Positions 12,536 to 31,381 of a DNA stretch of 32,000 bases are shown piece by piece (positions within the stretch are counted from its first letter, which is position 1; each line of letters starts with the position of its first letter). Both the position numbers and the translations under genes were made by a program. The stretch is from Vibrio alginolyticus NBRC 15630 = ATCC 17749 (GTDB lineage Bacteria > Pseudomonadota > Gammaproteobacteria > Enterobacterales > Vibrionaceae), in contig NC_022359.1 of the NCBI RefSeq assembly GCF_000354175.2, positions 1,530,001 to 1,562,000 of the forward strand, in the 5' to 3' direction. The notes beneath the pieces were generated by a model, which worked only from the letters and a program-made list of their open reading frames with translations, was not told the DNA's origin and ran no database searches.

Positions 12536-14659
12536 ATGTTGAAGTCGCATTGTTTTTCTCTCATTGCACTTGCTTCTCTGAGCTTACTTTCTATACCCAA
12601 CGTTTGGAGTAGAACAGCAATCGTGTTACCTGGATTGCATGAACAGGGTATTGATCTTCAAGATAAGCCTATCTCTGCTGCGGCTACACGTGAATGGGAA
12701 CTGGATTATGCTGATATCTTATTCGGTGCTTACGAAAGTAAAAGTCATAATGAGCGTGTACAAGCACTTGGTTACATGTACAACCAAAAGCTGGAACTTA
12801 ACTCAGGTTGGCTGGAAAACGATATACGTAACCAAGCAGAACTGAATGGAATTGACTACGAAGATTTCTTTCTCCACTTTTCTGAAGACACTATCCTAGC
12901 TGAAGTCGACTCAAGCCATGGCGAGAATACTCTGCTCAATCGAAAACCGATGATTGTTGGTTATACGGCTAGTGCTGACCACGCCGGTTTTTGGCTATAT
13001 CAACCACCGCCATGGGATGCTGATGTATTCGGTCAGGCGAATAATGGTGGTGCCCTCTATGTTTATCACTCAGAGAAGTTCGACCGCTTAACCCTTACGT
13101 TTTCCCAGTTTGCTCAAGGTGGCAACTTCATAATTGAATACCCTTCTGCTATCGACTCGTTTGGTCAGGTATCGGAGTGGAAGCCCTTTGATATTAAGAA
13201 AGATAGAACACAGGGCATGACCAAAGACCAAACAGTAAACTGGTCTGTTCCTTCGGATTGGGTTCGCGCTACAACGCATGATGGTAGCGGAAAAACTTAT
13301 GGTGGCGGTCAGTACTTTGGCTCCACCTTTTTACGCGACGGCGGCCGCCTTTACTTTGCGAAAATTACTTGGCATGACGACAACATAGAAAACCGCCCAC
13401 GTCTCGAAAACATTCGACTCAAAAATAGCTTCCCTGCCGTCAACATCTCAGGAGCACCAACGGAGACACCTGAAGGTCAAACCATTCAACGCTGGCGTAA
13501 AATTCGTGGCTTCGACAAATCTGCAGATCGAAACCAAGACAATTATCTTTCTTGGAATGAATACAAAAACCGTTCGAATAAGAATGCAACGGCACGATTT
13601 CGTTGGGAGTCACGGGTTATTCCACTTGGTCGTATGTGGAATCAAACCTCTTCTTGGGCATTGACCAATCTCGGCAATCCCGTTTTTACCAATACAATGC
13701 GCCACTATTACCAAGCTGAATGGGCGAAACAAGGTTTAAATGGTGCGTACAACGACGACACGAATAAGTTACTCGGTGCAAATCAGTTCTACATATATTC
13801 CGGAGGCACAGTGGGTGAGCTTGGTTTGGTGGCGGGTAGCCAAGCTGCTGACGATGCGTACAAAGCGCAATTCTCGGCGTTCTTGAATAAACTGGCAACG
13901 CAGGATGAAGATGCGTTAATTGGCCTCAACATAGGTACGGCAAACTTATTCGGTCGTAATGGGCAAAACCACTTGGTTGACGCTGGCTCCTTGTACTTGC
14001 GCGAGCACTACCTTTTCCCTTCTACCGGCTTTAGTGGCTATGCTGGGTTAGCTAAGTTTTGGGATAACTCTGCACTCGCCAAAGCTGGCCAGAAAGTGAT
14101 TTATCAAGCGACAACGCGTTATGGTCGCGTTCAATACTTTGGGAACACAGAAGACAATTGGAAACAGGACCAATACTCTGCACTAGCAGTGTTCTACTTA
14201 AACTATCACCCTGAGCGCAGTTACTTTAATCAGTGGAACAATGGCTACTTATATGGAAGTAATAACACAACAAGTGACAACTTCTGGAAGGCAGGCGTAC
14301 CAAAGAATATTGCTTATCAACCTAGCACCTTGCTTGCCGTTGATTTGGGAGAGCCTGCCAATCAAATACCAGAGGGGTATCAGGCGACTCCGGTAATGAT
14401 GTCCACCAGCACGCCCTATCCTGCCGATTACACGGTGATTGGAGATGCTTCTATGAGCAAAGTGGCTCATCCTGACTTGCCCAATGGCGCTATCGATTTG
14501 TTACCAACCCATACGTACTTTGCGTATCACTCAGACGATACGGTGGTGGTGCATGGTCCTACGGAGATGGTGTTAGCCCGCGAATTCACTAAAGGCCGAG
14601 TGCTGTATCGGACTGATTTTTTGGCAAAAATATCGGTTACTTCTCCTCACCGAGGATAA
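12536..14659 (+). CDS. secreted protein of unknown function, possibly glycoside-hydrolase-like; 3' end apparently frameshifted
   Basis: 707-aa ORF with signal peptide MLKSHCFSLIALASLSLLSIPNVWS. An EF-hand-like loop DRNQDNYLSWNE lies at 13526-13561. I recognise no family with certainty. The reading frame appears to continue in another frame to 14769 (see findings). Confidence 0.8.
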   Translation: MLKSHCFSLIALASLSLLSIPNVWSRTAIVLPGLHEQGIDLQDKPISAAATREWELDYADILFGAYESKSHNERVQALGYMYNQKLELNSGWLENDIRNQAELNGIDYEDFFLHFSEDTILAEVDSSHGENTLLNRKPMIVGYTASADHAGFWLYQPPPWDADVFGQANNGGALYVYHSEKFDRLTLTFSQFAQGGNFIIEYPSAIDSFGQVSEWKPFDIKKDRTQGMTKDQTVNWSVPSDWVRATTHDGSGKTYGGGQYFGSTFLRDGGRLYFAKITWHDDNIENRPRLENIRLKNSFPAVNISGAPTETPEGQTIQRWRKIRGFDKSADRNQDNYLSWNEYKNRSNKNATARFRWESRVIPLGRMWNQTSSWALTNLGNPVFTNTMRHYYQAEWAKQGLNGAYNDDTNKLLGANQFYIYSGGTVGELGLVAGSQAADDAYKAQFSAFLNKLATQDEDALIGLNIGTANLFGRNGQNHLVDAGSLYLREHYLFPSTGFSGYAGLAKFWDNSALAKAGQKVIYQATTRYGRVQYFGNTEDNWKQDQYSALAVFYLNYHPERSYFNQWNNGYLYGSNNTTSDNFWKAGVPKNIAYQPSTLLAVDLGEPANQIPEGYQATPVMMSTSTPYPADYTVIGDASMSKVAHPDLPNGAIDLLPTHTYFAYHSDDTVVVHGPTEMVLAREFTKGRVLYRTDFLAKISVTSPHRG

Positions 14660-14883: not shown

Positions 14884-15906
14884 ATGACAACGACAAGGAA
14901 ATTCAGTCACATGAAGACGACACCTTCAATGCTCTCTGTTATGCTGCTCTCAGCATTATCAACTCATGCAAATGCGGATGAATGTGGAAAAATAACCATC
15001 GCGGATATGAATTGGAATTCGGCCAGCTTAATGGCGCACATCGACCAATTTGTCTTAAATGAAGGCTACCAGTGCGATGCGGAATTGATCCCTGGTGATA
15101 GCGTTCCTACGGGCACCTCTATGATTGAAAAGGGGCAGCCTGACGTTGCGCCAGAGTTATGGACAAACGGCATTAAAGAAGCACTTGATAAAGGAATTGC
15201 GGATAAACGCTTGCGCATCGCTAGTGAATCGCTTGTCAATGGTGGTGAAGAAGGGTTTTGGGTTCCCGCCTATCTGGTAAAACAGTATCCAGAACTCGCG
15301 ACGATAGAAGGCGTCATCAAGCACGCCAAACTATTTGAACACCCAGAAGATGATGACAAGTTCGCGTTTTATAGCTGCCCTGCTGGTTGGACATGCCAAA
15401 TCACCTCCGGTCACTTGTTTAATGCATTAGGGTTAAGTGAGCACGGCTTTGAGATGGTTGACCCAGGCTCTGGCGCTGCACTAGCTGGTACCATCGCCAA
15501 AGCCTATGATCGCAAAATGCCTTGGTTTGGTTACTACTGGTCACCAACACCCGTATTGGGCAAGTATGATATGGTCAAAGTGGATTTTGGTAGCGGAACG
15601 GATCTGGAAGAGTATCGCAACTGTACCACCCAGCCTGATTGTACTTCTCCCAAAGTAACAATGTACCCACCTTCTCCAGTTCGCACAGTAACAACTGAGG
15701 CATTTGCGAACAAAGAACCCCAAGCATTCGCGTACTTGCAGAAACGCGGATTTACCAACGAGCAAATGAGTGAAATGCTGGCCTGGATGGAAGATAACTA
15801 CGCGGACGGTGAAGAAGCGATGTTTTACTTCTTTAATACCTACCCTGACTTGTGGAAAGGCTGGGTATCTGAAGACGTCGCGGTGAGAATCGAAAAAGCG
15901 CTTTGA
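14884..15906 (+). CDS. glycine betaine/quaternary-amine ABC-type substrate-binding protein (OpuAC/ProX family), orphan
   Basis: Signal peptide (..MLSVMLLSALSTHANA) followed by an OpuAC-like sequence rich in Trp/Tyr (DMNWNSA, PELWTNG, FGYYWSPTP). An alternative start is ATG 14911. No permease or ATPase gene is adjacent. Confidence 0.85.
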   Translation: MTTTRKFSHMKTTPSMLSVMLLSALSTHANADECGKITIADMNWNSASLMAHIDQFVLNEGYQCDAELIPGDSVPTGTSMIEKGQPDVAPELWTNGIKEALDKGIADKRLRIASESLVNGGEEGFWVPAYLVKQYPELATIEGVIKHAKLFEHPEDDDKFAFYSCPAGWTCQITSGHLFNALGLSEHGFEMVDPGSGAALAGTIAKAYDRKMPWFGYYWSPTPVLGKYDMVKVDFGSGTDLEEYRNCTTQPDCTSPKVTMYPPSPVRTVTTEAFANKEPQAFAYLQKRGFTNEQMSEMLAWMEDNYADGEEAMFYFFNTYPDLWKGWVSEDVAVRIEKAL

Positions 15907-15988: not shown

Positions 15989-16366
15989 TTAATACATGGT
16001 GTGACCATTCAATGTTTCTTTGGGTATCTCTTGCAGAGCGTCCCAATGTTCAACGATCTTCCCATTGTGATCAAAACGAAAGAAATCCATCGTCACGTAT
16101 TCAATATCATTAGGCCATGTTTGGTGAGTGTGTAGTGCCACCAAATTCCCTTCAGCAATGGCTCGCACAAACGTAATATCTTTATCGGGATACTCATTTT
16201 GCATCCGCTCAAAATACTCGATAAAAGCCTCGGGGCCATTTCCAACTAATGGATTGTGCTGGATGTACTCATCACCTACGTAGTCTTCAACTGCCTTTCT
16301 TGGGTTACCTCTATAGGCGGTTTCGTAAAACGCAATGGCATTTCTTTTATTCTCTTGCAGATCCAT
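15989..16366 (-). CDS. SnoaL-like / NTF2-fold family protein
   Basis: The ORF track starts at 16495. ATG 16366 gives a 125-aa protein, MDLQENKRNAIAFYETAY...HTHQTW...FFRFDHNGKIVEHWD, typical of the SnoaL/NTF2-like fold. Confidence 0.8.
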   Translation of the reverse strand: MDLQENKRNAIAFYETAYRGNPRKAVEDYVGDEYIQHNPLVGNGPEAFIEYFERMQNEYPDKDITFVRAIAEGNLVALHTHQTWPNDIEYVTMDFFRFDHNGKIVEHWDALQEIPKETLNGHTMY

Positions 16367-16445
16367 TTTTCTTACCTGTGTTGCTCCATCTTGCGGATAA
16401 CGGTAATCATAGTCTTTGAACTTCAGAAGTGACTGAACATCGCGC

Positions 16446-16474
16446 ACAAAAAAGGCCGCTAAACAGCAGCCTTC
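16446..16474 (-). terminator. intrinsic terminator ending the RidA-to-243-aa operon
   Basis: On the minus strand, AAGGCTGCT-GTTT-AGCGGCCTT (one internal mismatch) is followed by TTTTTTGTG. It starts 35 nt downstream of the stop at 16509. Confidence 0.75.
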
Positions 16475-16508
16475 ATCACTTCTACTTGGAATCATCGCCT
16501 TTCATAGC

Positions 16509-17240
16509 TTAAACCACACCACCAGCACCGAGCATAGAACGCTCACTGTTCTCCACCAGCAACGCGGTTGCGGTTTGTTTCAGTGTTTCCCATTCTTGGT
16601 CTTCGACAAAGATACCATTTTGCCAAGAAGCTTGTTGCGTACGGCTTAACTCATCGCCTTCAATGTGGGTGGTATATCCTTGTGCACTTTTCTCGATATC
16701 GAAATCGTTCACGGAGAGCTCGATAACCATACTATGCAAATCCGTATCATGCCCATCAAACTGATCCGAGAAAAAGACTTCTGGCGCGATTCGTCCACGG
16801 TTTAACACATAAAGCGTTCGCTTGGGACTAGAGCCATTGACCCATTGTGCACGGCACGCAATGCCTTTTGCAGAGAGCTTCAACAACTCACTAAAACCTA
16901 GCCAACGGTTATGACACTGTTTCAACGTAACGGTAATCGACTTACGGTTGATCATTTTCTCGAGCGCGAAATCCAACACCGCGGGTAAATGACACGCTAC
17001 ACTCCCGTTGTGCAGTTCTACCTCTATGCTTGACGGCGTACTGTTGGTCACCGATACGGCGCAGTCTGAATCTAACCCAAGAAACAGACTGGCGTTATTA
17101 AAATGACGAACTCCATGTAAGCCAACCATTTGCAAGTCCGCCACCATGTTCGCAATGACATCCGCCTCACCACAGTGACGGCGCATGCCAAGAAATGCCT
17201 TATTAACCGCGGCCACCAATTCGTTGTGAGAGACGATCAT
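16509..17240 (-). CDS. hypothetical protein, 243 aa (no family recognised)
   Basis: Long ORF with an ATG start and GGAGG 9 nt upstream. ATGA overlap with the stop of the upstream 578-aa gene. No signal peptide, TM segment or cofactor motif seen. Confidence 0.85.
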   Translation of the reverse strand: MIVSHNELVAAVNKAFLGMRRHCGEADVIANMVADLQMVGLHGVRHFNNASLFLGLDSDCAVSVTNSTPSSIEVELHNGSVACHLPAVLDFALEKMINRKSITVTLKQCHNRWLGFSELLKLSAKGIACRAQWVNGSSPKRTLYVLNRGRIAPEVFFSDQFDGHDTDLHSMVIELSVNDFDIEKSAQGYTTHIEGDELSRTQQASWQNGIFVEDQEWETLKQTATALLVENSERSMLGAGGVV

Positions 17241-18973
17241 AATGCAAATCCTCCACTGATTTTTTGATTGTCACTTTGCGCAATTTCGTCACGTGGCGGC
17301 ATGCTAGGGAAAATCCATGTGTCTGCCAGTTTAGGGTCGTGAATTTCATCTAACAACGGCGCACCTTGGAAGAAAGTTACTCGAACCCAACGATCCGAGC
17401 GCGGATCAAACTTAGTCGCGCCAAAGATCGCCAATTTACAGCGCAGTAAGTGCATTGGTAACGCATCTTTACGCAGCACATTCATTTGAATATCCCCCAT
17501 CGCACGGTTGCCTAGCGTCCATACGCGACGTGTGATCGAACGATAAGCCGGTTTTTGCAATAGAAACTCTGCTACGGACATTTCTACATCACAGTCAAGC
17601 AAGGCCTGGTACAAGCGATTCACTTGTCTGCCGATATCAAGCGGCAGTTCTTTTTCTTCTCCAGCCTCTTCCCCGCGAACACCAAGCCTTGGCTCTTCTT
17701 TATCTTGTGAGCGATACCAGAACCAGTAGTTGTTCTCGGCTAGTGAGTAATCCGCATCAATCGCCCAGCGGTACTTGCTTTGCAACACTTCCAGTAAATC
17801 TTGGATCTTTTTCCCGCCCGGAATAGATAACGTTTCATCCGTATTCATTTGGCTAGCAAATTCATCCACTAAAGATGGGTAGAGTTCGATCAAGCAAGAG
17901 GTGAGGATTTCTTGGGCCTCCACACTCATTGTTTTCTTATGCTCGACCAAACTCGCCCAATTCGGATGTGATGCCATTAACGTTGTTAGCTCTGATAGCA
18001 GTTGTTTGATGTCTGCTATCGCTTGATGATTGAGCCTGTCTTGATGTTCATTGATGGTGATGACTTGCTCTAAATGACGCTGTGCTTTTTGCAGCAATCC
18101 TTGCAAAGGAGCATGGAATGAAGCTTCACATGGCATCGCAAAGACTCGCGCTACCGCACGTTCGCGAGAGGTCATCCATTGGTCAACGATGCACGGGTGA
18201 TGAATCAAGTATGGAGCCATGCCTAAGCCAGTCGCATTGCCGACACCAAGGTAGCGCTGCAAGCCACGATGCAAAGCCACCGCCTTGTCGCCACCTTGTT
18301 GAAGTGCCAGATAGTGCACCCAATCTAGGCTGAATTCACGCAACATATATACGGCACACATTTGCGCACTAAAAGACTGGCTGAAATCTGAGTTGTTCTC
18401 TAACAGTTTGAAATCGGCGATACCAAACTTTCCGTTACCATAAACAGCTGTGGTACGCAGGATATAACCCACTTCCGCTAACTCTTTCGGCTCAGGCTGC
18501 TCGCCTTGAGAAAGCGCGCTAACAATGTGCTCAAACACGCGCACACTTTTGTTTGCGCGAGCAAGAACAAGTACGTTGTTTGGATTACGTCCCGCTTCTT
18601 GCAGCGGTACATTTTCTCGCAATCTTTCCAACAAAGTAACATCAACATCGCCTTGAAACAGTGCAAATGTGACGTCCCACTTTTCAGCAATTACGCGATC
18701 ATTACGCTCGTCGTCGGCAATTTCATCACAGAATACCACCAAATGATAAACGTGCTCTGGCGTGGTCAATTTGTAAATCACATGACCATAACCACGAGGA
18801 CAAAGCTGCCACTCATGCTTGGTTACTTGCCAGTTTTGGCTTGCCATATTACGAATCAGACTGCGAACAAAGCTGATTCGGTTTTGGTGCATTGCGCCAA
18901 GCCTTTCGGCTGCCATGACAATCGCTGCATCGCGCATAGTTGCTTCCGTATAAGTAGAACGATGTGCATCCAT
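17237..18973 (-). CDS. hypothetical protein, 578 aa (no family recognised)
   Basis: Long ORF. The ORF track starts at GTG 18985; ATG 18973 has AGGTGGT 7 nt upstream. It appears soluble, with no P-loop, Rossmann or Cys-cluster motif. Confidence 0.85.
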   Translation of the reverse strand: MDAHRSTYTEATMRDAAIVMAAERLGAMHQNRISFVRSLIRNMASQNWQVTKHEWQLCPRGYGHVIYKLTTPEHVYHLVVFCDEIADDERNDRVIAEKWDVTFALFQGDVDVTLLERLRENVPLQEAGRNPNNVLVLARANKSVRVFEHIVSALSQGEQPEPKELAEVGYILRTTAVYGNGKFGIADFKLLENNSDFSQSFSAQMCAVYMLREFSLDWVHYLALQQGGDKAVALHRGLQRYLGVGNATGLGMAPYLIHHPCIVDQWMTSRERAVARVFAMPCEASFHAPLQGLLQKAQRHLEQVITINEHQDRLNHQAIADIKQLLSELTTLMASHPNWASLVEHKKTMSVEAQEILTSCLIELYPSLVDEFASQMNTDETLSIPGGKKIQDLLEVLQSKYRWAIDADYSLAENNYWFWYRSQDKEEPRLGVRGEEAGEEKELPLDIGRQVNRLYQALLDCDVEMSVAEFLLQKPAYRSITRRVWTLGNRAMGDIQMNVLRKDALPMHLLRCKLAIFGATKFDPRSDRWVRVTFFQGAPLLDEIHDPKLADTWIFPSMPPRDEIAQSDNQKISGGFAL

Positions 18974-19074
18974 TTTGCTCACCACCTATTTGTTATTGTA
19001 AGAATACTAGGGTTTGTGCGGATGCAGGAGGAAAACACCCGCACAAGCTCCACGTTGTTTGAATTAGATAATTG

Positions 19075-20676
19075 TTATAGCCCTTGCTCTTTCGCCATTT
19101 TGATTGCGATTTGCGGCGCATTCCAAAGTGACGGTAACAGAATCAACGAAACCGGAACCGCGGTAATCACAATGAAAGATTGCAGTGCAGAGATGCCACC
19201 AGAGCCAAGAGAAATCAGGATCAATGCCGTCACACCCATCATTACTCCCCAGAAGGTACGGATGATCGCATTCGGCTCCGTTTCACCACTGATCACGACA
19301 CTGATTGTGTAGGTCATTGAGTCGCCCGTCGTGACGATGAAGATCGTGGTTAAAATCAGAAATAGAATTGAAGTCAGCATTGGCATTGGTAGTTGCTGAG
19401 TCACCGCAAGCAAAGCACCTGGCAGGTTAAAGCCTTCGAACGCCGCACTCACGCTACCCGGTTCAGCAATTTCAAACGCAAGACCTGAGCCGCCCACAAT
19501 CGTGAACCAAAAACAGGTGGTTAACGGAGCCACAATACTGATGGTGGAAATAACTTGGCGAATAGTTCGACCACGGGAAATACGCGCAATAAAGATTGCC
19601 ATCATCGGACCATAACCCAGGAACCAGCCCCAGAAAAATACTGTCCACCAACTTAGCCAACCTTCGTCACCGCGATAAGTCGCCATTGGGATAAAGTTAT
19701 CCAACATGCTTCCTACACCTTGAATGTATCCGTTAAAGATAAAATTCGTAGGGCCAAAAAACAGGATGTAAACCATCAATGCCATTGCCAGAATCACGTT
19801 GTAACGACTAAGCAGTTGCATGCCTCGGCTTAATCCACTGAGTGCTGACAAGGTGTAAAGAGCAATCGCAAACAAGATGATGATAAGCTGAGTGGTAAAG
19901 CCATCAGGAATATCAAACAGCGCATTTAACGCGTAGCTAACCTGCAAGCCTAGAAACCCAATTGGCCCGATGGTGCCTGCGGCTACCGCGATAATGCAGC
20001 ACGCGTCAATCAATGCACCGAGTTGGCCTTTAAGTGCTCGTTCGCCCAAGACTGGGTAAAGCAAAATACGGGGTTTTAGTGGTAAACCTTTGTCGTAATG
20101 CAGGTGCATCACCACGATCGAAGTTAAGCTACCTACAATCGCCCAAGCCAGAAAGCCCCAGTGCATAAAGGATTGCGACAACGCATTCACCGCACCTTGC
20201 TGCGGGTTATCTTGCGCGCCGTATAAAGGGGGTGGGCTAACATAGTGTGCGATAGGCTCAGCCGCGGCCCAGAAAACGCCACCACCAGCCAATAAGGTAC
20301 AGAAAATAATCGCCATCCAGCGGAAAGAATCCATTTCTGGTTTTGCAATCCCGCCCAACATCACCTTGCCTGTTCGCCCTGCAGCCAAGCCAAGACCAAT
20401 AAGAAAAGTGAGAAGCAGCAGTAACTGCCAGTATGGACCAAACACCTGAACTGCCCAGCTAAAACCGGCGTTAACGATCGTAGATAACAGCTCGCCGTCA
20501 TAAAGTGCAATAGCAACGAACAACGCGATGAAACCACCGCTATACCAAAAGGCCGGGTTATTCAGTCCTAATTTGTCCATCGTGTTTTCTGTTGTTGATG
20601 TGTTGTGTTTTACTTTTGACTTGCCCGATGACACGCTCATCGTGGAAGCTTTCATGCTATTGGTTAAATCAGACAT
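19075..20676 (-). CDS. BCCT family (betaine/carnitine/choline-type) transporter
   Basis: About 12 TM segments and the BCCT signature region WLSWWTVFFWGWFLGYGPMMAIFIARISRGRTIRQ. The start is uncertain: ATG 20676 has GGAG 8 nt upstream, the ORF track uses TTG 20709, and ATG 20580 is also possible. Confidence 0.9.
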   Translation of the reverse strand: MSDLTNSMKASTMSVSSGKSKVKHNTSTTENTMDKLGLNNPAFWYSGGFIALFVAIALYDGELLSTIVNAGFSWAVQVFGPYWQLLLLLTFLIGLGLAAGRTGKVMLGGIAKPEMDSFRWMAIIFCTLLAGGGVFWAAAEPIAHYVSPPPLYGAQDNPQQGAVNALSQSFMHWGFLAWAIVGSLTSIVVMHLHYDKGLPLKPRILLYPVLGERALKGQLGALIDACCIIAVAAGTIGPIGFLGLQVSYALNALFDIPDGFTTQLIIILFAIALYTLSALSGLSRGMQLLSRYNVILAMALMVYILFFGPTNFIFNGYIQGVGSMLDNFIPMATYRGDEGWLSWWTVFFWGWFLGYGPMMAIFIARISRGRTIRQVISTISIVAPLTTCFWFTIVGGSGLAFEIAEPGSVSAAFEGFNLPGALLAVTQQLPMPMLTSILFLILTTIFIVTTGDSMTYTISVVISGETEPNAIIRTFWGVMMGVTALILISLGSGGISALQSFIVITAVPVSLILLPSLWNAPQIAIKMAKEQGL

Positions 20677-20785
20677 ACTCTGGCTCCAGAGGTTCTTTGC
20701 AGCAGCCAAAGACTGGCTACAAATGTGAGTTTTACGCCTGCCGTATTGTTATTATGTGGGCAGGCGGTTCCTACTTTGGGGAATG

Positions 20786-21775
20786 CTATGAAATAGGCTC
20801 TAATCCTTCTTTAAGGAAGTTGAACCAGTTTTCACCCAATATTTTTCCAGCCTCAGATTCACTGAATCCGTGATCCATTAATCCGTTGTAGATGTTCTCC
20901 ATCCCTGCGCTGCCGCAGAACCATGGCAGCGCATCTGGCCATCCCGAGTTACTTGCTGAACCTTCGCCGTAATCCATCGCTTTTGACCAACGCCCGTTGC
21001 GCATCCACTCCAACACTTGTTGCGGCTGATTTAGGCACAAATCGCTACCGATACCTAAATGCTCAACGCCAAACATGTCTGCGGTTTTCGCAACCATCTG
21101 GCAGAAATCATCCAACGTGCACTGGCTGCCATTTGGCAAATGGAACGGATATAAACTGAATCCAATCAAACCACCGCGCTCCGTCAGTGCTTTGATCACG
21201 GTGTTAGACTTGTTGCGCAGTGCGTCATGCGCAAACGTCGGGTTAGCATGGCTGATACAAATTGGACGCGAAGAAAGATCGATGGCTTCCAACGTCGAAC
21301 GCTCTGCACTGTGGGACATATCAATGATCATCCCGACTCGGTTCATCTCTTCAATCGCTTGCTTACCAAAGCGAGTTACGCCGGAATCGTTTTGTTCGTA
21401 ACAACCTGTCGCCAGTAAGCTTTGGTTGTTGTAGGTCAGTTGCATGATCAGCAGACCTTGGCGGCGCATCACTTCAATCAGACCAATTTCATCATCGATA
21501 GGTGAGCAATTTTGCGCGCCGAAGAAGATGCCGACTTTGCCTTCTGCTTTGGCTTTTTCTACATCTGCCATTGAATAAATAGGCATGATGAGGTCCGCAT
21601 TTTGCTCGAAGCGCAAGTTCCATTCAGCAAAACGCGTTAAGGTTTCGCGCGCAGTTTCGTGGTAGACGATGGTGGCATGAACGGCGGTAATGCCACTCGC
21701 CTTAAGCGTTTGGAAATACTCTCGATCCCAATTGCAGTACTGCAATCCGTCAATCACAATCCGTTGTTGGTACAT
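20786..21775 (-). CDS. peptidase M19 (renal dipeptidase)-like protein with a degenerate metal site
   Basis: Collinear with my recollection of DPEP1: IIDMSHSA, CISHANP..LRN and LGIGSD are retained, but VIDGHND reads VIDGLQY. The ORF track starts at GTG 21781. ATG 21775 has AAGGAG 5 nt upstream. Confidence 0.88.
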   Translation of the reverse strand: MYQQRIVIDGLQYCNWDREYFQTLKASGITAVHATIVYHETARETLTRFAEWNLRFEQNADLIMPIYSMADVEKAKAEGKVGIFFGAQNCSPIDDEIGLIEVMRRQGLLIMQLTYNNQSLLATGCYEQNDSGVTRFGKQAIEEMNRVGMIIDMSHSAERSTLEAIDLSSRPICISHANPTFAHDALRNKSNTVIKALTERGGLIGFSLYPFHLPNGSQCTLDDFCQMVAKTADMFGVEHLGIGSDLCLNQPQQVLEWMRNGRWSKAMDYGEGSASNSGWPDALPWFCGSAGMENIYNGLMDHGFSESEAGKILGENWFNFLKEGLEPIS

Positions 21776-21844
21776 AACCACTCCTTAAACAATTTCTTAG
21801 CCTTTCAGTGCGGGTAACTGACACCATCAGCTACCCTGCTGTTC

Positions 21845-23305
21845 TTAGTAAGGGCGCTGATAAGCGGTTTTCACCACGGTGTAGAACTCTTTGGCGTACT
21901 GCCCTTGCTCACGAGGGCCAAAGCTAGATTCTTTACGGCCACCAAATGGGACGTGATAATCTGTACCCGCAGTTGGCAAGTTAACCATGACGCAGCCCGT
22001 TTGGACTTGCTGTTTGAAGATCGCGCTATTGCGCAGACTTTGCGTGATAATGCCGCCTGTCAGGCCAAAGCGCGTATCGTTCGCGACTGCAATTGCCTCA
22101 TCCAGATCAGAAACGCGAATCACGCTTGCCATTGGTGCAAAGACTTCTTCTTGGTTCACTTCCCAGCTGTTTTGTGTGTTCAAGAACAGGGTTGGTGACA
22201 TATAGTAACCGTCATGCTCTAGGCTCAGACGCTCACCACCGAAAGCCAGCTCCGCGCCTGCTTGGCGTGCGTTTTCGATCCACTCAAAGTTCGCATTCAG
22301 CTGGTTACCATCAACAACAGGGCCCATGAATACGCCCTCTTCTAGAGCGTGACCCACTTTAAGTTCGCTCATGCGTTTGATTAGCGCTTCAACATACGCG
22401 TCGTGAATTCCGTCCATAACCACAAGACGAGAAGACGCGGTGCACTTTTGACCCGCACCCGAGAATGAGCCTGCGATTGTCGCTTCGACAGCAATTTGAA
22501 TATCTGCATCATCTGCCACTACGAGCGCGTTTTTGCTGCCCATCTCTAGCTGACAACGTACAAAGTTTGGTGCCGTAGCCGCTGCAACTTTACGGCCTGT
22601 GTCCACAGAACCAGTGAAGCTCACGCCGTTCACATCCTTCGAATTGATAAGGGTATTACCGACTTGCGAACCGCTACCCAAAACGAGGTTAAACGTGCCA
22701 GCAGGTAAACCTTGGCGATGGATAATCTCTGTCAGCGCAACGGCACTTGCTGGGGTTAGGTTGGCAGGCTTCCAGACGACGCTGTTGCCAAACGCAAGTG
22801 CTGGCGCGATTTTCCAAGCCGCTGTTGCTGTTGGGAAGTTCCAAGGAGAGATAATGGCGATAACGCCGACGGCTTCGCGAGTAACTTCAACGGAGACACC
22901 TGGACGGACGGAAGCAGCGCTATCGCCAATTTGACGCAGAACCTCAGCAGCAAAGTATTGGAAGAATTGGCCAGCACGGTAAATCTCACCTCGACCTTCA
23001 GAAAATGGCTTACCTTCTTCACGCGAAAGCAAGGTGCCCAATTCGTCACATCGTGCAATGAGCTCATCACCAATCGCTTGTAGCACTGCTTGCTTGCGCT
23101 CGATTGGTGTTTTTTCCCACTCTGGCTGCGCTGATTTAGCCGCTTGAATCGCTTGCTCTACTTGCGACACACTCGCTTGTGCGAAATCGCCAATGTTTTC
23201 GCTGATATCAGAAGGGTTAATATTGGCGATGGTGTCCATGCCCGATTGCCACTCACCCGCTATATAGAGGGATTTTTCTGCTTGAACATTGTTAATAAAA
23301 GTCAT
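21845..23305 (-). CDS. NAD(P)-dependent aldehyde dehydrogenase
   Basis: ALDH superfamily with general-base Glu motif LEMGSKNA and catalytic Cys motif GQKCTASSR. The ORF track starts at 23353. ATG 23305 (MTFINNV) has AAGGAAAG upstream. Confidence 0.92.
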   Translation of the reverse strand: MTFINNVQAEKSLYIAGEWQSGMDTIANINPSDISENIGDFAQASVSQVEQAIQAAKSAQPEWEKTPIERKQAVLQAIGDELIARCDELGTLLSREEGKPFSEGRGEIYRAGQFFQYFAAEVLRQIGDSAASVRPGVSVEVTREAVGVIAIISPWNFPTATAAWKIAPALAFGNSVVWKPANLTPASAVALTEIIHRQGLPAGTFNLVLGSGSQVGNTLINSKDVNGVSFTGSVDTGRKVAAATAPNFVRCQLEMGSKNALVVADDADIQIAVEATIAGSFSGAGQKCTASSRLVVMDGIHDAYVEALIKRMSELKVGHALEEGVFMGPVVDGNQLNANFEWIENARQAGAELAFGGERLSLEHDGYYMSPTLFLNTQNSWEVNQEEVFAPMASVIRVSDLDEAIAVANDTRFGLTGGIITQSLRNSAIFKQQVQTGCVMVNLPTAGTDYHVPFGGRKESSFGPREQGQYAKEFYTVVKTAYQRPY

Positions 23306-23378
23306 GGTTCTTTCCTTGTTCTTCCGATTTGTGATGGCAAGCCACTCACTCACTGATCTCTAATTATTCTCGTTGGAT

Positions 23379-23932: not shown

Positions 23933-24823
23933 ATGAGTATTAAGCTTCAACAATTAATGCATTTTGTGATGGTAGTCGAGGAAGGAGGCTTTCGAGCCGC
24001 TTCACATCGTGCAAATCGTTCTCAGGCGGCACTGTCAACATCGATAAAAGAGCTTGAAAAAATTCTAGGGCAAACGCTGTTTGAACCCGGAAACAAAACC
24101 AAATTGACCCCGTTTGGTGAAATTTGTCTTCCCAAAGTGGTTCAGTTTCTCAATATCTACAGTGCACTAGACAACGATCTCAAAGCAGCCGCTGCCGGAC
24201 AGCAAGGGAGAGTGCGAATTGCGAGCGTTCCTTCTGTTGCAGCAAAGCTCATTCCTAGCGTGTTGGGCGCCTTTTGCGAACAGTATCCAAATGTAGAAGT
24301 AAGCTTGATAGACGATAATGCCGCTGGTGTCGAGGCTCGCCTACTCTCCGGTGAGGTCGACTTAGCGCTCGGTAACCCCTCTCACCTCGATGAGGGCGGC
24401 ATTGACTTTACGCCGCTGTTAGCTGATCCAATAGGCGTGGTGTGTTTAAAGGACAACCCTATTGCGAGTCATCCAGAAGGAGTCGAGTGGCAAACTTTGT
24501 TGGAACAACCCTTTATCCGTAACGGCACTTGTACACTTCTCGATCCAACCCCAGCAAGAGCTCTGAGTCAGCAAGCGCTCTATTCGGTCGAAAATATTAC
24601 TTCGCTGTTTTCTGTCTTAGAACTTGGGATTGGTGTCACGACCCTACCGAAGCTTGCTTTCCCAACCAATGAAACACGCTTGGTTTGGATTCCGCTTATC
24701 GATCCACCACTTGAAAGGCAAATTGGTATATTTACGTTAACCGATCGCACGATCTCGCCTCAAGCTAAAGCATTTCACGATCTTTGTGTGCATTATTTAA
24801 ACTATCAAAAAGAAGATAAATAA
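23933..24823 (+). CDS. LysR-family transcriptional regulator, divergent from the BCCT operon
   Basis: wHTH motif FRAASHRANRSQAALSTSIKELEKILG followed by a LysR effector-binding domain. Confidence 0.9.
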   Translation: MSIKLQQLMHFVMVVEEGGFRAASHRANRSQAALSTSIKELEKILGQTLFEPGNKTKLTPFGEICLPKVVQFLNIYSALDNDLKAAAAGQQGRVRIASVPSVAAKLIPSVLGAFCEQYPNVEVSLIDDNAAGVEARLLSGEVDLALGNPSHLDEGGIDFTPLLADPIGVVCLKDNPIASHPEGVEWQTLLEQPFIRNGTCTLLDPTPARALSQQALYSVENITSLFSVLELGIGVTTLPKLAFPTNETRLVWIPLIDPPLERQIGIFTLTDRTISPQAKAFHDLCVHYLNYQKEDK

Positions 24824-24903: not shown

Positions 24904-26010
24904 CTATTTTTTGCGACGATTTCGGTTCTTATACACCACGCAAAAGTTACCACGCTTGGTACGACACTTTGAGCAACGCTCACAATCTACTGGTGCGCGA
25001 TTGCCTTCTTTCCAACGTTTGATCAACTGTGGCTCAGCCAATAAAGGGCGTGACACAGCAAAAAACTGGATATCTGTGTTTTCTGCAATTTTCTCAATCG
25101 CATCAATGTCGCTCAGCCCGCCGACAGTAATCACCGGTATACTAACGTCCTGACTGATCACGTGACCATATTCGTGAAAGTAACCTTCTTCTTGTAGTGT
25201 GTAACCATCGAACGTTTGACCAACAAGTTCGTTTGCTTTGCCGTGAACATTGCCAGATACGATGATCGCATCAACGCCTATTTCTTCAAGTTTCTTACAG
25301 ACGACGCGAGTTTCATCGAACGTTAAACCGCCGTCAAAGAACTCTGTTGCCGTCAGTTTAACGAGGATGGGAAATTCGCTTCCAACCAGCTTTCTGGTTT
25401 CAGAATAAATTTCTAAAAGAAAGCGCATGCGATTTTCTAAGTCACCACCATATTCGTCTTCGCGACGATTATAGTACGGGCTTAAAAACTGGTTAATTAA
25501 ATAAGTGTGCGCCGCATGAATCTCTACGCCGTCAAAACCAGCGTCTTGAGCACGTTTGCTCGCCAATGCGAATGCCTTTACGATGTAGTCTATTTCGTCC
25601 TTTGTCATCGCTTTGCCTTGCGTATTTGTACCACGCTCAGGCACGTCACTCGGAGCGAAGATGACACGCTCACCGACGTTATGGGTGGTTTTGGTGCCAC
25701 CGTAAGCAATTTGCATCACGATTTTAGAATCTTGTTGATGTACTAGCTCTGTTAGCTTTTTGTATTCTTCAATAAAAGAGTCGTTGTAGATCCCCATCAT
25801 ACCTGCGTTGGGTTTCTCTTCTTCAACGATATTGGCATAACCTGTAACAATAAGCCCAACTTCCCCTTTCGCAAGCGTTTCGTAAATATCGTAAAGCTTT
25901 GCCGTCATGTGACCATCTTCGGTCGCCATGTTCTCCCACGTTGCGCTTCGCACAAAACGGTTCTTTAGGGTCATGTTGCCAATGCGGGCTTCGGAAAACA
26001 AAATGCTCAA
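24904..26010 (-). CDS. NADH:flavin oxidoreductase, Old Yellow Enzyme family, with C-terminal Cys cluster
   Basis: OYE TIM-barrel sequence (LFSEARIGNMTLKNRFVRSAT, GFDGVEIHAAHTYLINQFLSP). C-terminal CERCSKCRTKRGNFC. TTG start with AAGAGGA 6 nt upstream. Confidence 0.9.
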   Translation of the reverse strand: MSILFSEARIGNMTLKNRFVRSATWENMATEDGHMTAKLYDIYETLAKGEVGLIVTGYANIVEEEKPNAGMMGIYNDSFIEEYKKLTELVHQQDSKIVMQIAYGGTKTTHNVGERVIFAPSDVPERGTNTQGKAMTKDEIDYIVKAFALASKRAQDAGFDGVEIHAAHTYLINQFLSPYYNRREDEYGGDLENRMRFLLEIYSETRKLVGSEFPILVKLTATEFFDGGLTFDETRVVCKKLEEIGVDAIIVSGNVHGKANELVGQTFDGYTLQEEGYFHEYGHVISQDVSIPVITVGGLSDIDAIEKIAENTDIQFFAVSRPLLAEPQLIKRWKEGNRAPVDCERCSKCRTKRGNFCVVYKNRNRRKK

Positions 26011-26679: not shown

Positions 26680-27546
26680 TTACAGAGCTAGAGGAATCAA
26701 CTCGACACCAAGCACACCACTGATCCCCATCACCACTAGCAGTGAGACTTTAAACACCGACTTTGACCAAGCGATGTAGTTGTTGTCATCAATGCTGCGA
26801 AAGGTCACTTTCGTCCACATAAAGCAAACAACCGCTGCAACCGCTAAGTATTCATACCCGGCTTCACCTAGTAAAAATAACCCCAACGATACTGCTCCAA
26901 ACGCCACGACATACGCTTTCATGTGTCGATGCGCTTTATGAATACCTTCTTTAACTGGCAATACGGGAATCCCGGCTTCTCGGTAGTCTTGCATGCGAAA
27001 CATGGCAATGGCATACGAGTGCGGCATTTGCCAGAGACAGAACATGGTAAAGAGTAAAATCGCTTCCAAGCTAATGAAGTTTGTTACCGCTAAGTAACCC
27101 ACCAATGGCGGAACTGCACCTGAGATACTTCCCACTAAGGTCCCATACACCGAGTTACGTTTATACCACATCGTGTAAAAGAACACGTAATACACGTAGC
27201 CAAGCAACACGACGACAGCGGATAGTGGGTTCACTCGGATAAATAACAGTGCGGTTCCTACCAGCAATAAAGCAAGTGCATAAACAAACGCAATATCGAT
27301 ATTGATGTTGCCTTTCACTGTTTCACGATTTCGTGTACGTGCCATCTTTTGGTCGATATCACGATCGAAAATATTATTCACCACACAACCTGAAGCGATG
27401 ACTAACCCAACACCAACTAACGTCGTAACGAACAACATTAGACTGGCTGGTTCTGTTTTTGCGGCGAGGAAGAACCCCGCCGCAACAGAAATCAGGTTGC
27501 CGAAAATAATGCCCGGTTTAGTGATAGACAAATAACTTTTCAGCAT
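26680..27546 (-). CDS. cyoE: protoheme IX farnesyltransferase (heme O synthase)
   Basis: UbiA-family polytopic membrane protein (NNIFDRDIDQKMARTRNR motif) and last gene of the cyo operon. The ORF track starts at 27657. ATG 27546 (MLKSYLSITKPGI) matches the usual CyoE N-terminus. Confidence 0.9.
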   Translation of the reverse strand: MLKSYLSITKPGIIFGNLISVAAGFFLAAKTEPASLMLFVTTLVGVGLVIASGCVVNNIFDRDIDQKMARTRNRETVKGNINIDIAFVYALALLLVGTALLFIRVNPLSAVVVLLGYVYYVFFYTMWYKRNSVYGTLVGSISGAVPPLVGYLAVTNFISLEAILLFTMFCLWQMPHSYAIAMFRMQDYREAGIPVLPVKEGIHKAHRHMKAYVVAFGAVSLGLFLLGEAGYEYLAVAAVVCFMWTKVTFRSIDDNNYIAWSKSVFKVSLLVVMGISGVLGVELIPLAL

Positions 27547-27554
27547 ACCTTGAC

Positions 27555-27866
27555 CTACAACTTCATGTTGACGTTCATGTTGTAGATGATCCATACCGAG
27601 CCAGCGATAAGGATAAGTACAACAATGGCGGTAAACATCAGTGATACAAGGTTCCAACGTCCGTCGGATGTTTTTGTTTCCATGTGCAAGAAGTATTTAA
27701 AGTGAACAAATATCTGCACTAATGCACATCCAAATAGAATCGCATAGGTCGTTGTATCTGGTAATGATTTCGTCCAAACAAAGTAGAACGGAATTACCGT
27801 CAGAATCAGTGAGGCAATAAAGCCTTTCACGTAATCTGACGAACTGGTTTCTACATGTTGATCCAT
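27555..27866 (-). CDS. cyoD: cytochrome bo3 ubiquinol oxidase subunit IV
   Basis: 103 aa with three TM segments. Its start overlaps the cyoC stop (TAATG). The ORF track starts at 27911. Confidence 0.87.
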   Translation of the reverse strand: MDQHVETSSSDYVKGFIASLILTVIPFYFVWTKSLPDTTTYAILFGCALVQIFVHFKYFLHMETKTSDGRWNLVSLMFTAIVVLILIAGSVWIIYNMNVNMKL

Positions 27867-28468
27867 TACATTACCCCCAGTAAGTAAACGATGGTAAAGA
27901 CACAAATCCAAACGATATCTAGAAAGTGCCAGAATAGGCTTAAGCAGTTAAAGCGCATTGCCATATTGTCGTTTAGACCTTTCGTCGACAGTTGATGGTA
28001 CGCTACCGCTAACCAAATCAGACCAAAGGTTACGTGCAGGCCGTGCGTACCAACCAACGTAAAGAATGCCGACAGGAATGCACTTGTTTGTGGGCCATAG
28101 CCTTCTTCAATCAGGTGATGGAACTCATAGACCTCCATACAGATAAAGCCAAGACCAAGCGCGAACGTGACTAACATCCAACGTTTGAGACCAGCAACGT
28201 TGTTGCGCTTCATCGCGATAATGCCAAAACCAAATGTGATACTGCTAAACAGCAGCAGCATGGTTTCGACAAAAACGAATGGAAGTTCGAAAATGTCTTT
28301 ACCTGTTGGGCCCGCAATTGAATTGCTCGACAGCACAGCGTAAGTCGCGAACAAGGTCGCAAACAGTACACAGTCACTCATCAGGTAAACCCAGAAACCA
28401 AATAGCTTGTTGCCATTCGTGTCATGGTGGTGATCATGGTCGTGATGTGCTGCGATATTAGTTTGCAT
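27866..28468 (-). CDS. cyoC: cytochrome bo3 ubiquinol oxidase subunit III
   Basis: 200 aa. His-rich N-terminus followed by [24 protein letters not shown], closely matching my recollection of E. coli CyoC. Confidence 0.92.
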
Positions 28469-30494
28469 ACGTCACCTCCAGATCATCTTTACTTTCGCTG
28501 TCTTTCACTGAGTTTTTCTTCGCTTCTTCAAGCTGAGCTCGACGTTCGGCCTCAATTGCTTTGATCTCTTCAACTTCCACGTAGTAATCCACATCATCGT
28601 TATAGCTATGCTGAATACACGTCACGATAATACCGACCAAACTTGCCGCCGCTAGCCACCAGATGTACCAAATCATGCCGAAGCCAAATAGGAGCGACCA
28701 AGCCGACACGTAGATGCCTGTTGCAGTGTTTTTTGGCATATGAATACGTTCGTATTCCACTTCTTTAGTTGGATCGAACTCGCCACTTTGTTTCTGGTAC
28801 CAGAAGGCATCCAGCACATCACCTTTTGGTAGGTGCGCAAAGTTGTAGAACGGCGGTGGAGACGATGTTGCCCACTCAAGAGTACGTCCACCCCACGGGT
28901 CACCAGTTAAATCACGGTTTTGCTCGCGGTCACGGATACTCACGTAAATTTGGATGAACTGAGACAATACGCCCAGCGCAATCACAACCGTACCTGCTGC
29001 GGCAATCGACAACAGTGGGAAGTATTCTGGGTTGATGTCTTGGCTTAAACGACGAGTCATCCCCATAAAGCCCAGCGCGTAAAGCGGTAAGAACGCCATT
29101 AAGAAACCAATAATCCAAAGATAGAACGCGCGTTTGCCCCAAGTTTCATTCATGGTGAAACCGGTCGCTTTCGGGAACCAGTAAGTGATCGCAGCGAAAC
29201 ATCCAAACACCACACCACCAATGATTACGTTATGGAAGTGAGCGATAAGGAATACTGAGTTATGCAGAACGAAATCTGCGCCCGGAACAGCCATTAGTAC
29301 GCCCGTCATACCACCAACAGTAAAGGTGATAAGGAAGCCCACCGTCCACATCATTGGCGTCGTAAAGCGGATGCGGCCTTTGTACATCGTGAATAGCCAG
29401 TTGAAGATCTTCACCCCTGTTGGGATAGAAATGATCATCGTGGCAATACCGAAGAAGGCATTTACGTTCGCGCCAGACCCCATCGTAAAGAAGTGGTGTA
29501 GCCAAACGACAAAGGCAAGAATCGTGATAACTACGGTAGCCCAAACTAGCGATGTGTAACCGAACAACTTTTTACGTGAGAAGGTTGCGGTGACTTCTGA
29601 GAACACACCAAAAATTGGCAAGATCAAAATGTACACTTCTGGGTGACCCCAAGCCCAAATCAGGTTGACGTACATCATTACGTTGCCGCCAAGATCATTG
29701 GTAAAGAAGTGCATGCCTAGGTATCTATCCAGCGTAAGCAGAGCGATAGTCACCGTTAGGATTGGGAATGAAATGATGATCAAAATGTTTGCACACAGAG
29801 ACGCCCAAGTGAAAACTGGCATCTTCATCATTGGCATAGACGGTGTACGCATACGCAAAATGGTCGCGAAGAAGTTCACGCCTGTTAACGTCGTACCAAC
29901 ACCTGATATCTGCAGCGCCCAAATCCAATAGTCGACCCCGACTCCTGGGCTAGCCTCAATACCTGAAAGCGGCGGATACGCCAACCAGCCGGTACGACCA
30001 AATTCACCTAAGCCGAGAGACATGTTTGTTAGGATGACACCTACAACAAACAGCCAGAAGCTCAAGTTATTCAGATACGGGAAAGCTACGTCACGCGCAC
30101 CAATCTGCAATGGCACGATGATGTTCATCAGACCAATGACCAATGGCATCGCTACAAAAAAGATCATGATCACGCCGTGGGCAGTAAAAATTTGATCGTA
30201 GTGATGCGGTGGCAAGTAACCTGCTTCACCCGCAGAAGAAAGGAGTTGCTGACTACGCATCATGACTGCGTCAGCAAAACCACGAACAAGCATCACCATC
30301 GCTACTGCGATGTACATGAAGCCAAGTTTTTTATGGTCTACTGAAGTAAACCATTCATTCCACAAATATTGCCACTTTCCGGCTTTGGTCACCGCGTAAA
30401 CTACGGCTAAACCAACCAGCGCCACAACCGCTAGGGTGATGACGATAATAGGTTCGTGGAATGGAACTGAATCAAGAGTTAATCTTCCAAACAT
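28458..30494 (-). CDS. cyoB: cytochrome bo3 ubiquinol oxidase subunit I
   Basis: 678-aa heme-copper oxidase subunit I ([41 protein letters not shown]). Confidence 0.96.
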
Positions 30495-30499
30495 TACGA

Positions 30500-31381
30500 T
30501 TATCCTTGGTTTTCAGGCAAACAGTTCATTGAACCAGGATGCTGAGTCACAACGTCGGTGAACAAGAACGGAGGAACGCTAGAGAACAAAGTGACTGGCT
30601 CTGCGATACTTGGCGCTGCCAGTGAGCTGTATTGCTCCCAATCTTCAATACGATCAGGGCTCGCCTTCACTTTCTGCACCCAATTTAGGAACGCAGCACG
30701 ATCAGACATTGCTGAAGCTGTGAACTTCATTTGCGAAAAGCCTTCGCCGCTGTAGTTCGATGCAAAACCCTTATAGTCACCTTCGTGGTTCGCTATGAGG
30801 TTGAGCTTGGTTACCATTCCTGGCATCGCGTAGATCTGTGTACCTAAGCGAGGGATGAAAAACGCGTTCATGATGTTGTCCGAAGTCAGTTTGAACTGCA
30901 CTGGCACGTCTTTCGGGAACGCCACATAGTTCACCGTCGCAATGTTTTCCTCTGGATAGATGAACAACCATTTCCAATCGAGTGACACCACTTCGATGGT
31001 CATTGGTTTAACATCACTTTCCAAAGGTTTGGATGGCTCTAGTTCATGAGTCGAACGCCATGTGATCGTCGCAAGAATCGCAATGATGATGATTGGAATT
31101 GTCCATACCACCACTTCGATTTTGGTCGAGTGTGACCACTCGGGTGCGTACTCTTCTTCAGTATTAGAGGCGCGGTATCGGTAAGCGAAGTAAATCGTCA
31201 TTAAAATCACAGGGATTACAACGATCAACATCAGCAAAAGAGCAGTAATAATTAACTCTTTTTCTTGCACACCAATGGCACCTTTGGGGTCAAGTAAAGC
31301 TGAATTACATCCTGAGAGCATAAGTATGACGGACGCCAAACTTCCCCTCGACAAGATGCGTTTATATCTTGAGGCTTCCAT
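30500..31381 (-). CDS. cyoA: cytochrome bo3 ubiquinol oxidase subunit II (lipoprotein)
   Basis: Lipobox LSGC followed by NSALLDPKG, as in E. coli CyoA, then two TM segments and a cupredoxin-like domain ([26 protein letters not shown]). The ORF track starts at 31426; ATG 31381 is preferred. Confidence 0.92.

Follow-up and report, generated by a model that had tools for sequence, protein, structure and literature searches.

HomB and HomA in Vibrio alginolyticus, a probable ring-opening pair of the homarine operon

Which reaction is carried out by two proteins that are encoded together at the end of an operon of familiar catabolic genes, and that public annotation still calls ‘hypothetical protein’ and ‘DUF3726’? 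The question is raised by a stretch of 32,000 nucleotides from Vibrio alginolyticus NBRC 15630 = ATCC 17749 (contig NC_022359.1, positions 1,530,001 to 1,562,000 of the forward strand), here called the window, in which adjoining genes encode proteins of 578 and 243 residues. As judged from gene order and sequence, the two are HomB and HomA of the homarine operon of Ferrer-Gonzalez et al. (Nat Microbiol 2026, PMC13236597), and the locus is already known because that operon has been published. We consider it likely that HomB and HomA together form the two-subunit enzyme with which the catabolism of homarine (N-methylpicolinate) begins, by opening of its N-methylpyridinium ring; the step that they catalyse, its cofactor and the structures behind the formulae discussed below are what we infer. 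New beyond the published account are the apparent Ldh_2 ancestry of HomA, the absence of any family or fold match for HomB, and the occurrence of natural HomB–HomA fusions. The features of the pair, in positions of the window, are:

17237..18973, minus strand: homB, 1,737 nucleotides, 578 residues; the large subunit, strongly conserved, for which neither a family nor a fold could be recognised
16509..17240, minus strand: homA, 732 nucleotides, 243 residues; a DUF3726 protein with a predicted shortened Ldh_2-like fold, a catalytic dyad that has degenerated and a C-terminal tail that is conserved
17237..17240, minus strand: ATGA overlap of the homB stop and homA start (TCAT on the plus strand)
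17250..17254, minus strand: GGAGG Shine–Dalgarno sequence of homA, within the end of homB and 9 nucleotides 5' of the ATG (CCTCC on the plus strand)
16455..16467, minus strand: weak terminator-like hairpin with a T-run, directly 3' of the homA stop, from a pattern scan and the sequence only

The longest mechanically called open reading frame (ORF) of homB covers 17237-18985 and would give 582 residues from a GTG start; the ATG at 18973, directly preceded by AGGTGGTGA, gives 578 residues and aligns with an invariant methionine of 54 homologues. The four-nucleotide overlap of homB and homA is beyond chance; among related loci it is the commonest spacing of the two genes (26/60, in raw ORF calls). 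A first, sequence-only reading of this DNA had proposed two coupled ORFs with an ATGA overlap and an internal GGAGG, both of which can be read off the sequence, with the correction that they lie on the minus strand. Its placement of the pair as the distal genes of an operon holds, with the weak hairpin following homA, and its statement that neither protein has a transmembrane segment is borne out by a maximum Kyte–Doolittle 19-residue mean of about 1.0, with no hydrophobic segment in either. The closest homologues, which all bear the name ‘hypothetical’, come from Vibrio, with 97% identity to V. diabolicus.

Assignment to the homarine operon

The operon runs in the order RidA, aldehyde dehydrogenase (ALDH), M19 peptidase, BCCT transporter, 578-residue protein and 243-residue protein, together with a divergent LysR gene. 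The genes beside the pair are:

19075..20709, minus strand: homT, BCCT-family transporter (Pfam BCCT, E 8e-150), start codon uncertain, placed as the glycine-betaine-type homT of Cobetia
20786..21781, minus strand: homC, amidohydrolase of the M19 ‘membrane dipeptidase’ family (Pfam Peptidase_M19, E 2e-70)
21845..23353, minus strand: homD, aldehyde dehydrogenase (Pfam Aldedh, E 2e-151); longest ORF, orthologues having about 486 residues
23379..23777, minus strand: homE, RidA-family protein, an auxiliary gene (Pfam Ribonuc_L-PSP, E 7e-23)
23933..24823, plus strand, divergent: homR, LysR-type regulator (Pfam HTH_1 and LysR_substrate)

Among NCBIfam models, homD comes nearest to that for alpha-ketoglutarate semialdehyde dehydrogenase, without reaching the cut-off of the model. 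Gene for gene, the window operon matches homE-D-C-T-B-A/homR (PMC13236597). The cluster reported by Ferrer-Gonzalez et al. from Cobetia sp. OBi1 comprises homE, homA, homB, homT (a glycine-betaine-type transporter), homC (a peptidase), homD (an ALDH) and homR; homA measures about 700 nucleotides and homB about 1,700, and the presence of homC and homD within 10 kb was used as a search criterion for the operon (PMC13236597). The window genes, at 732 nucleotides for homA and 1,737 for homB, have these sizes, are adjacent with their four-nucleotide overlap, and share an operon with the M19 and ALDH genes. A contig of Cobetia amphilecti with a HomB-family protein served as the Cobetia reference for sequence comparison. 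It carries the same seven genes, in the order LysR (divergent), ALDH, M19, BCCT, a 599-residue protein, a 262-residue protein and RidA; the 599-residue protein has no Pfam match and the 262-residue protein matches both Ldh_2 and DUF3726. Window HomB is 46% identical to the protein in the HomB position over its full length (E 2e-180), and window HomA 29% identical to that in the HomA position, again over its full length (E 4e-19). We assign the 578-residue protein as HomB and the 243-residue protein as HomA because the seven-gene order, the predicted functions, the gene sizes and the Cobetia identities all agree, and the earlier view that the pair has no characterised family gives way to this assignment. 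Glycine betaine and dimethylglycine, hydroxyproline betaine, creatine and ectoine had been considered first as substrates and were dropped once the homarine paper was found. Literature searches on DUF3726 and on the combination of BCCT, dipeptidase and RidA yielded nothing useful.

The physiology of the operon comes from the same publication. Mutants of Ruegeria pomeroyi in homB (a transposon mutant), homC, homD and homR fail to grow on homarine, as does a homD deletion in Cobetia, while a Vibrio isolate carrying the hom operon grows on homarine and Vibrionales express homB (PMC13236597). Labelled homarine was converted to N-methylglutamate, glutamate and N-methylglutamine, along with features of formulae C6H9NO3, C6H9NO4 and C7H9NO5 (PMC13236597). 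Homarine is among the most abundant small nitrogen metabolites of the surface ocean, and the operon was reported in about 11,755 genomes, SAR11 included (PMC13236597).

Conservation of the module was examined in 80 loci, one genome per species, found with a 21-sequence HomB alignment as query and compared by clustering our own ORF calls. Gamma- and Alphaproteobacteria, Chloroflexota, Campylobacterota and Brevibacillus are represented among the loci, with Vibrionaceae, Psychromonas, Psychrobacter, Shewanella, Marinobacter, Halomonas, Pseudomonas, Paraburkholderia, several Alphaproteobacteria and Poseidonibacter as the sources named in the first four groups and in Chloroflexota collectively. The genes occur as follows:

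HomB: called in 76/80 loci
M19 (homC): 63/80
ALDH (homD): 61/80
HomA: 61/80
LysR (homR): 49/80, usually divergent from the operon
BCCT (homT): 44/80
RidA (homE): 39/80

In Vibrio the RidA gene has the ALDH gene as its neighbour, and in Halomonas, Marinobacter and Cobetia it follows homA; this agrees with the variable placement of homE already described (PMC13236597). A complete hom cluster is also borne by the conjugative plasmid pMPC6-328K of Pseudomonas sp. MPC6 (locus L088, 188256-206999), where its flanks carry an IS6 transposase and another BCCT gene, the latter accompanied by two genes of the enolase superfamily; in RefSeq the pair on this plasmid is named ‘hypothetical protein’ and ‘DUF3726 domain-containing protein’. 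This cluster looks like a mobile island for the catabolism of betaine-type solutes.

Relatives, folds and fusions of the two proteins

For the 243-residue protein, the claim that no family could be recognised does not stand: HomA matches Pfam DUF3726 with E 1.4e-15. The resemblance to Ldh_2 oxidoreductases that the sequence-only reading had offered as a weak one, for a protein about 100 residues too short, proved well placed in structure, profile and orthologue comparisons. The AlphaFold2 model of HomA has a predicted local distance difference test (pLDDT) score of 86, and with it Foldseek returned 27 matches at E<=0.001, every one of them an Ldh_2 protein, the best with E 3e-9 and a probability of 1.00. 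TM-scores normalised to the query were 0.54-0.71; DpkA (1wtj) was the top match, and ComC, YiaK, AllD and type-2 malate dehydrogenases were also among the matches. A profile of 35 diverse HomA sequences matches YiaK (3.3e-5) and the sulfolactate dehydrogenase ComC (4.8e-5): residues 1-113 of HomA align with 1-118 of YiaK and residues 199-226 with 306-333, and nothing in HomA aligns with the central part of the Ldh_2 sequence. Pfam Ldh_2 itself matches 19/35 HomA orthologues at E<=0.01 (best 5.8e-13); window HomA has no match to it at E<0.1. An HHalign comparison of a narrow Vibrio HomA alignment with seven neighbouring Ldh_2 proteins gave a probability of only 0.3, and the diverse profile later matched.

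The catalytic residues of Ldh_2 enzymes are the histidine of an ‘SHG’ motif and a nearby arginine. Among the 35 diverse HomA sequences the histidine column (H42 in the window) is occupied by N in six, H in five, D in four, and G, P and R in three each, with others in the remainder, and the arginine column (H46 in the window) by A in eight, H in five, E in four and I in four, again with others; in these alignments the pair is not conserved. At 243 residues, HomA also falls short of a full-length Ldh_2 protein, which has about 330-360 residues including the central region. What HomA conserves best is its C-terminal tail, LV[EP]x[ST][ED]xS[R]xGAG, predicted to be flexible and present in the window as LVENSERSMLGAG. 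From its alignments and its model, then, HomA is best described as a shortened, degenerate derivative of Ldh_2.

The same kinds of search gave nothing significant for HomB. Window HomB has no match in Pfam, NCBIfam, PADLOC or the PDB; Pfam applied to 47 diverse members of the family showed nothing but the DUF3726/Ldh_2 domain that the fusions carry, and sequence searches of HomB and HomA against PDB chains gave noise only. Weak Pfam matches to PFam54_60, PSDC and SRP54_N were confined to single members and are put down to chance, as are the helices of P450 BM3 that the 47-sequence HomB profile picked out of the PDB at E 0.05-0.2. The HomB model is moderately confident (pLDDT 75; predicted TM-score 0.79), and the best Foldseek match of this model in the PDB has E 0.26, with scattered kinase-like, JetABC and fumarase matches that are not significant.

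Conservation within HomB is considerable. Its top motifs are RNDRVIAEKWD, RANKSVR, GYILRTTAVYGNGKFG, GVGNATGLGM, EEPRLGVRG and KFDPRSDRW, and many Arg, Asn, Glu, His and Trp residues are invariant; these motifs lie in low-confidence loops of the model, as would be expected for sites that bind a ligand or a partner. The suggestion that the two proteins carry no cofactor motif holds for the P-loop, HExxH and Cys cluster, none of which was found in either sequence, and fails for GxGxxG, which is present as GNGKFG at residues 179-184 of HomB (within YGNGKFGIAD; window 18439-18422, minus strand). This motif is nearly invariant in the family, lies in a loop with pLDDT below 50 and is not a classic beta-alpha-beta unit; its sequence resembles a nucleotide-binding or kinase-type G-loop and may mark a cofactor site.

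An exhaustive search of representatives clustered at 50% identity found 1,211 clusters of HomB relatives at E<=1e-3. Among the best 150 of these, 48 are at least 690 residues long, and 43 of the 48 have a HomA-like domain at the C-terminus, so that natural HomB–HomA fusions make up 43/150 of the best representative clusters (about 29%). The fusions give independent support for a physical two-subunit enzyme. That HomB and HomA form such an enzyme, produced in matching amounts as had been supposed from the overlap of their genes, is supported by the conserved translational coupling, by these fusions and by the AlphaFold prediction of a HomA/HomB heterodimer (PMC13236597).

A more distant fused subfamily, with about 30-35% identity and 860-960 residues, was found with other partners. 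The loci examined, with fused proteins of 864-936 residues, are:

L084, 8001-10595: distant HomB–HomA fusion
L085, 7026-9818: distant HomB–HomA fusion
L086, 8001-10811: distant HomB–HomA fusion

Here an M19 gene is a neighbour in 3/3 loci, an ALDH gene in 2/3 and a RidA gene in 1/3, with a LacI regulator and ABC-transporter genes in place of LysR and BCCT; one locus also encodes an M24 protein similar to creatinase and an oxidase of the DAO family. The enzyme module thus outlasts exchanges of transporter and regulator, and the distant subfamily may act on another substrate.

Proposed chemistry and its alternatives

The argument for ring opening proceeds by elimination: once ALDH, M19 and RidA are given their roles, HomB/HomA alone among the catalysts of the conserved module is left without one, and the earlier idea that the pair carries the pathway-defining chemistry is sustained on the same ground. 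M19 enzymes hydrolyse amides and ALDHs oxidise aldehydes. In the scheme that we favour, HomT would import homarine, and HomB/HomA would attack and open the N-methylpyridinium ring, with HomB as the catalytic subunit and HomA as an Ldh_2-derived partner that would contribute structure and the conserved tail and might also bind the 2-carboxy-iminium portion of homarine. Homarine (C7H7NO2) would, with O2 and 2[H], give C7H9NO4, an amino-enal with N-formyl and N-methyl groups; the ring would be cut between C5 and C6, so that C6 becomes the N-formyl group and C5 the aldehyde. HomD would oxidise this aldehyde to C7H9NO5, and HomC, as a ‘dehydropeptidase’-like amidohydrolase, would remove formate to leave C6H9NO4, both of which are formulae among the published features. 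A two-electron reduction of C6H9NO4 would then yield N-methylglutamate (C6H11NO4), a published product. Were the amidase to act before the ALDH, the product would be C6H9NO3, also a published feature and formally the N-methyl enamine of alpha-ketoglutarate semialdehyde, which would fit the nearest relatives of HomD. HomE could hydrolyse such an enamine or imine to a keto acid and methylamine, a route that might serve as a bypass in Vibrio strains without N-methylglutamate dehydrogenase. The published features C7H9NO5, C6H9NO4 and C6H9NO3 and the product N-methylglutamate would all fit the formulae of these intermediates.

Several points weigh against this scheme. The Cobetia sequences compared here come from C. 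amphilecti and not from strain OBi1 itself, homologue searches with HomB reach no protein of known function, and confidence in its model, which has an overall pLDDT of 75, is lowest in the very loops that are best conserved. No conserved reductase is assigned to the last step, and the formulae possibly belong to other structures, for example N-methyl-2-oxoglutaramate or N-methylpyroglutamate. On HomA and HomB themselves, the published paper offers no enzymology; it predicts a heterodimer with AlphaFold, ascribes ‘FAD binding domain motifs’ to HomA and likens the pair to TgnA/TgnB of trigonelline catabolism (PMC13236597).

How the ring might be opened allows of a more specific and more speculative answer, which we put forward as doubtful: that HomB/HomA opens pyridinium rings as an enzyme class of its own, with no kinship to the two-component flavin oxygenases. 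NAD(P)H would reduce the ring to an electron-rich dihydropyridine, which would then react with O2 within HomB without an organic cofactor, so that C5-C6 is cleaved and the N-formyl aldehyde results. HomA and a glycine- and arginine-rich site of HomB would hold homarine much as DpkA holds its cyclic 2-carboxy-imine substrates, and the lost general-acid histidine would be unnecessary since the pyridinium nitrogen is permanently charged. If this were true, HomB would represent a catalytic fold without known relatives.

The hypothesis of Ferrer-Gonzalez et al. is that HomA/HomB is a two-component flavin-dependent oxygenase like TgnA/TgnB, in which HomA supplies reduced flavin and HomB activates O2; it draws on the ‘FAD binding domain motifs’ reported in HomA and on trigonelline being a structural isomer of homarine (PMC13236597). 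The stoichiometry of homarine with O2 and 2[H] to C7H9NO4 would fit this enzyme also. However, we could not reproduce the FAD-binding motifs stated for HomA: Pfam, NCBIfam, a PDB profile search and Foldseek gave no flavin-reductase or FAD-binding signal in the protein, and its significant matches are all to DUF3726 or Ldh_2, whose enzymes depend on NAD(P)H and are not known to use flavin. For HomB there is no match to any oxygenase family, and the 47 diverse HomB and 35 diverse HomA homologues show neither flavin oxygenase nor flavin-reductase or FAD-binding matches in Pfam or NCBIfam; we regard this reading as unlikely.

Alternatively, HomB/HomA could be an imine or ene reductase that makes N-methylglutamate by the chemistry of DpkA-type N-methyl-amino-acid dehydrogenases, with the ring opened elsewhere. 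Such a role would suit the Ldh_2 ancestry of HomA and its top Foldseek match to DpkA (1wtj), and would supply the two-electron reduction that the pathway requires and no conserved gene explains; full-length Ldh_2 genes also adjoin the cluster in 8 loci. We hold it to be improbable all the same: the Ldh_2 catalytic His and Arg columns vary in HomA, of which only the N- and C-terminal parts align with the family, HomB is the better-conserved subunit and is unrelated to reductases, and nothing else that is conserved with the cluster could be proposed as the ring opener.

Hydrolytic opening without O2 is a third possibility, in which water added at C6 would yield a product like N-methyl-2-aminomuconate-semialdehyde, on which an ALDH and a deaminase of RidA type would act next. 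In established chemistry picolinate arises by cyclisation of 2-aminomuconate semialdehyde, and the 2-aminophenol and kynurenine pathways use an ALDH and a RidA-family deaminase, both of which have counterparts in the operon. Yet this route would leave unexplained why one ring carbon is lost on the way to N-methylglutamate, why an M19 amidase is needed and where the C7H9NO5 feature comes from, and we hold it to be very improbable. Finally, a non-catabolic pair, whether defence or mobile-element module, regulator or spurious ORFs, has in its favour one UniRef name with a Zorya ZorC domain, one NCBI name ‘protein kinase family’ and weak Foldseek matches of HomB to JetABC and kinases (E>0.2), and is effectively refuted by context and published genetics, since no PADLOC defence model matched, all 80 contexts are catabolic where phage or defence islands might have been expected, purifying conservation across phyla is strong, and the R. 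pomeroyi homB transposon mutant does not grow on homarine (PMC13236597).

We thus return to HomB/HomA as the likely ring opener of the operon. For this ecologically important reaction, the ancestry of HomA, the isolation of HomB and the natural fusions provide constructs and hypotheses.

Neighbouring genes and known systems

Directly downstream of homA on the minus strand lies a SnoaL-like gene (15989-16495, with a probable true start at the ATG at 16366), preceded by the weak hairpin and followed by a strong 19-bp terminator (15977-15936). Adjoining homR at the other end is a gene for an OYE-family NADH:flavin oxidoreductase (24904-26010, minus strand). Neither is counted as part of the operon because neither is conserved with the cluster, a counterpart being found in 0/80 related loci for the SnoaL-like gene and in 3/80 for the OYE-family gene; the SnoaL-like gene probably stands outside the conserved operon. 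Beyond the OYE-family gene is an operon for a cytochrome bo3-type oxidase that includes a UbiA-family gene (26680-31426, minus strand), and farther from the cluster are genes for electron-transfer flavoprotein alpha subunit and electron-transfer flavoprotein–ubiquinone oxidoreductase (2307-5071). On the plus strand, positions 12536-14659 encode a 707-residue protein with an N-terminal segment like a signal peptide and no Pfam, NCBIfam or PADLOC match; just downstream of it is an orphan gene for an OpuAC-type betaine-binding protein (14884-15906), with no ABC-transporter partner genes alongside.

Elsewhere, the full-length Ldh_2 genes that adjoin the hom cluster in eight loci encode proteins of about 335 residues, most with the SHG motif. 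They lie at L052:17646-18647, L053:15011-16027, L059:12495-13523, L060:5250-6254, L065:4180-5181, L068:16725-17843, L070:5186-6229 and L071:4724-5728, in OM60/Halieaceae, Arenicellales, Woeseiaceae, Hellea and other hosts, and their products are candidates for an imine reductase forming N-methylglutamate. Sets of four genes, for proteins of about 415, 98, 980-1007 and 185-199 residues, directly follow homB-homA in L051, L052, L056, L057, L068 and L074; from reading the sequences, not from a family search, they resemble heterotetrameric sarcosine oxidase or N-methylglutamate dehydrogenase, and they are sometimes accompanied by a serine-dehydratase-like gene and a GbdR-like AraC regulator.

Considering the systems already known, the closest is the homABCDER operon itself (Cobetia sp. 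OBi1 ACFLL8_11495/11500; R. pomeroyi SPO3188/3189), with the same gene sizes, adjacency, neighbours and order as in Vibrio. It differs in the RidA gene, which follows homA in Cobetia and is promoter-proximal, beside the ALDH gene, in Vibrio, and the published description of FAD motifs in HomA was not recovered here. The job proposed for HomA/HomB is that of TgnA/TgnB in the trigonelline catabolism of Acinetobacter baylyi, namely to open the ring of an N-methylpyridinium carboxylate ahead of a dehydrogenase and a hydrolase that release a one-carbon unit; no relationship of sequence or fold between the two pairs was found, nor any flavin-reductase domain in HomA/HomB. In the dgc (dimethylglycine) operons, PA5396-PA5397-dgcA-dgcB of P. 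aeruginosa and pepD-hp-dgcAB of V. natriegens, the head of the operon likewise consists of an M19 dipeptidase and a small uncharacterised protein in the service of methylated-amine catabolism, but HomB is absent. With the Ldh_2 family (PF02615; DpkA, YiaK, ComC, AllD) HomA appears to share its fold, with about 113 N-terminal and about 30 C-terminal residues that align, and DpkA, a delta1-piperideine-2-carboxylate/N-methyl-amino-acid dehydrogenase, acts on cyclic 2-carboxy imines that resemble homarine. Unlike the members of that family, HomA is about 100 residues shorter, does without the conserved catalytic His/Arg columns, is always partnered with or fused to HomB, and has a conserved C-terminal tail of its own.

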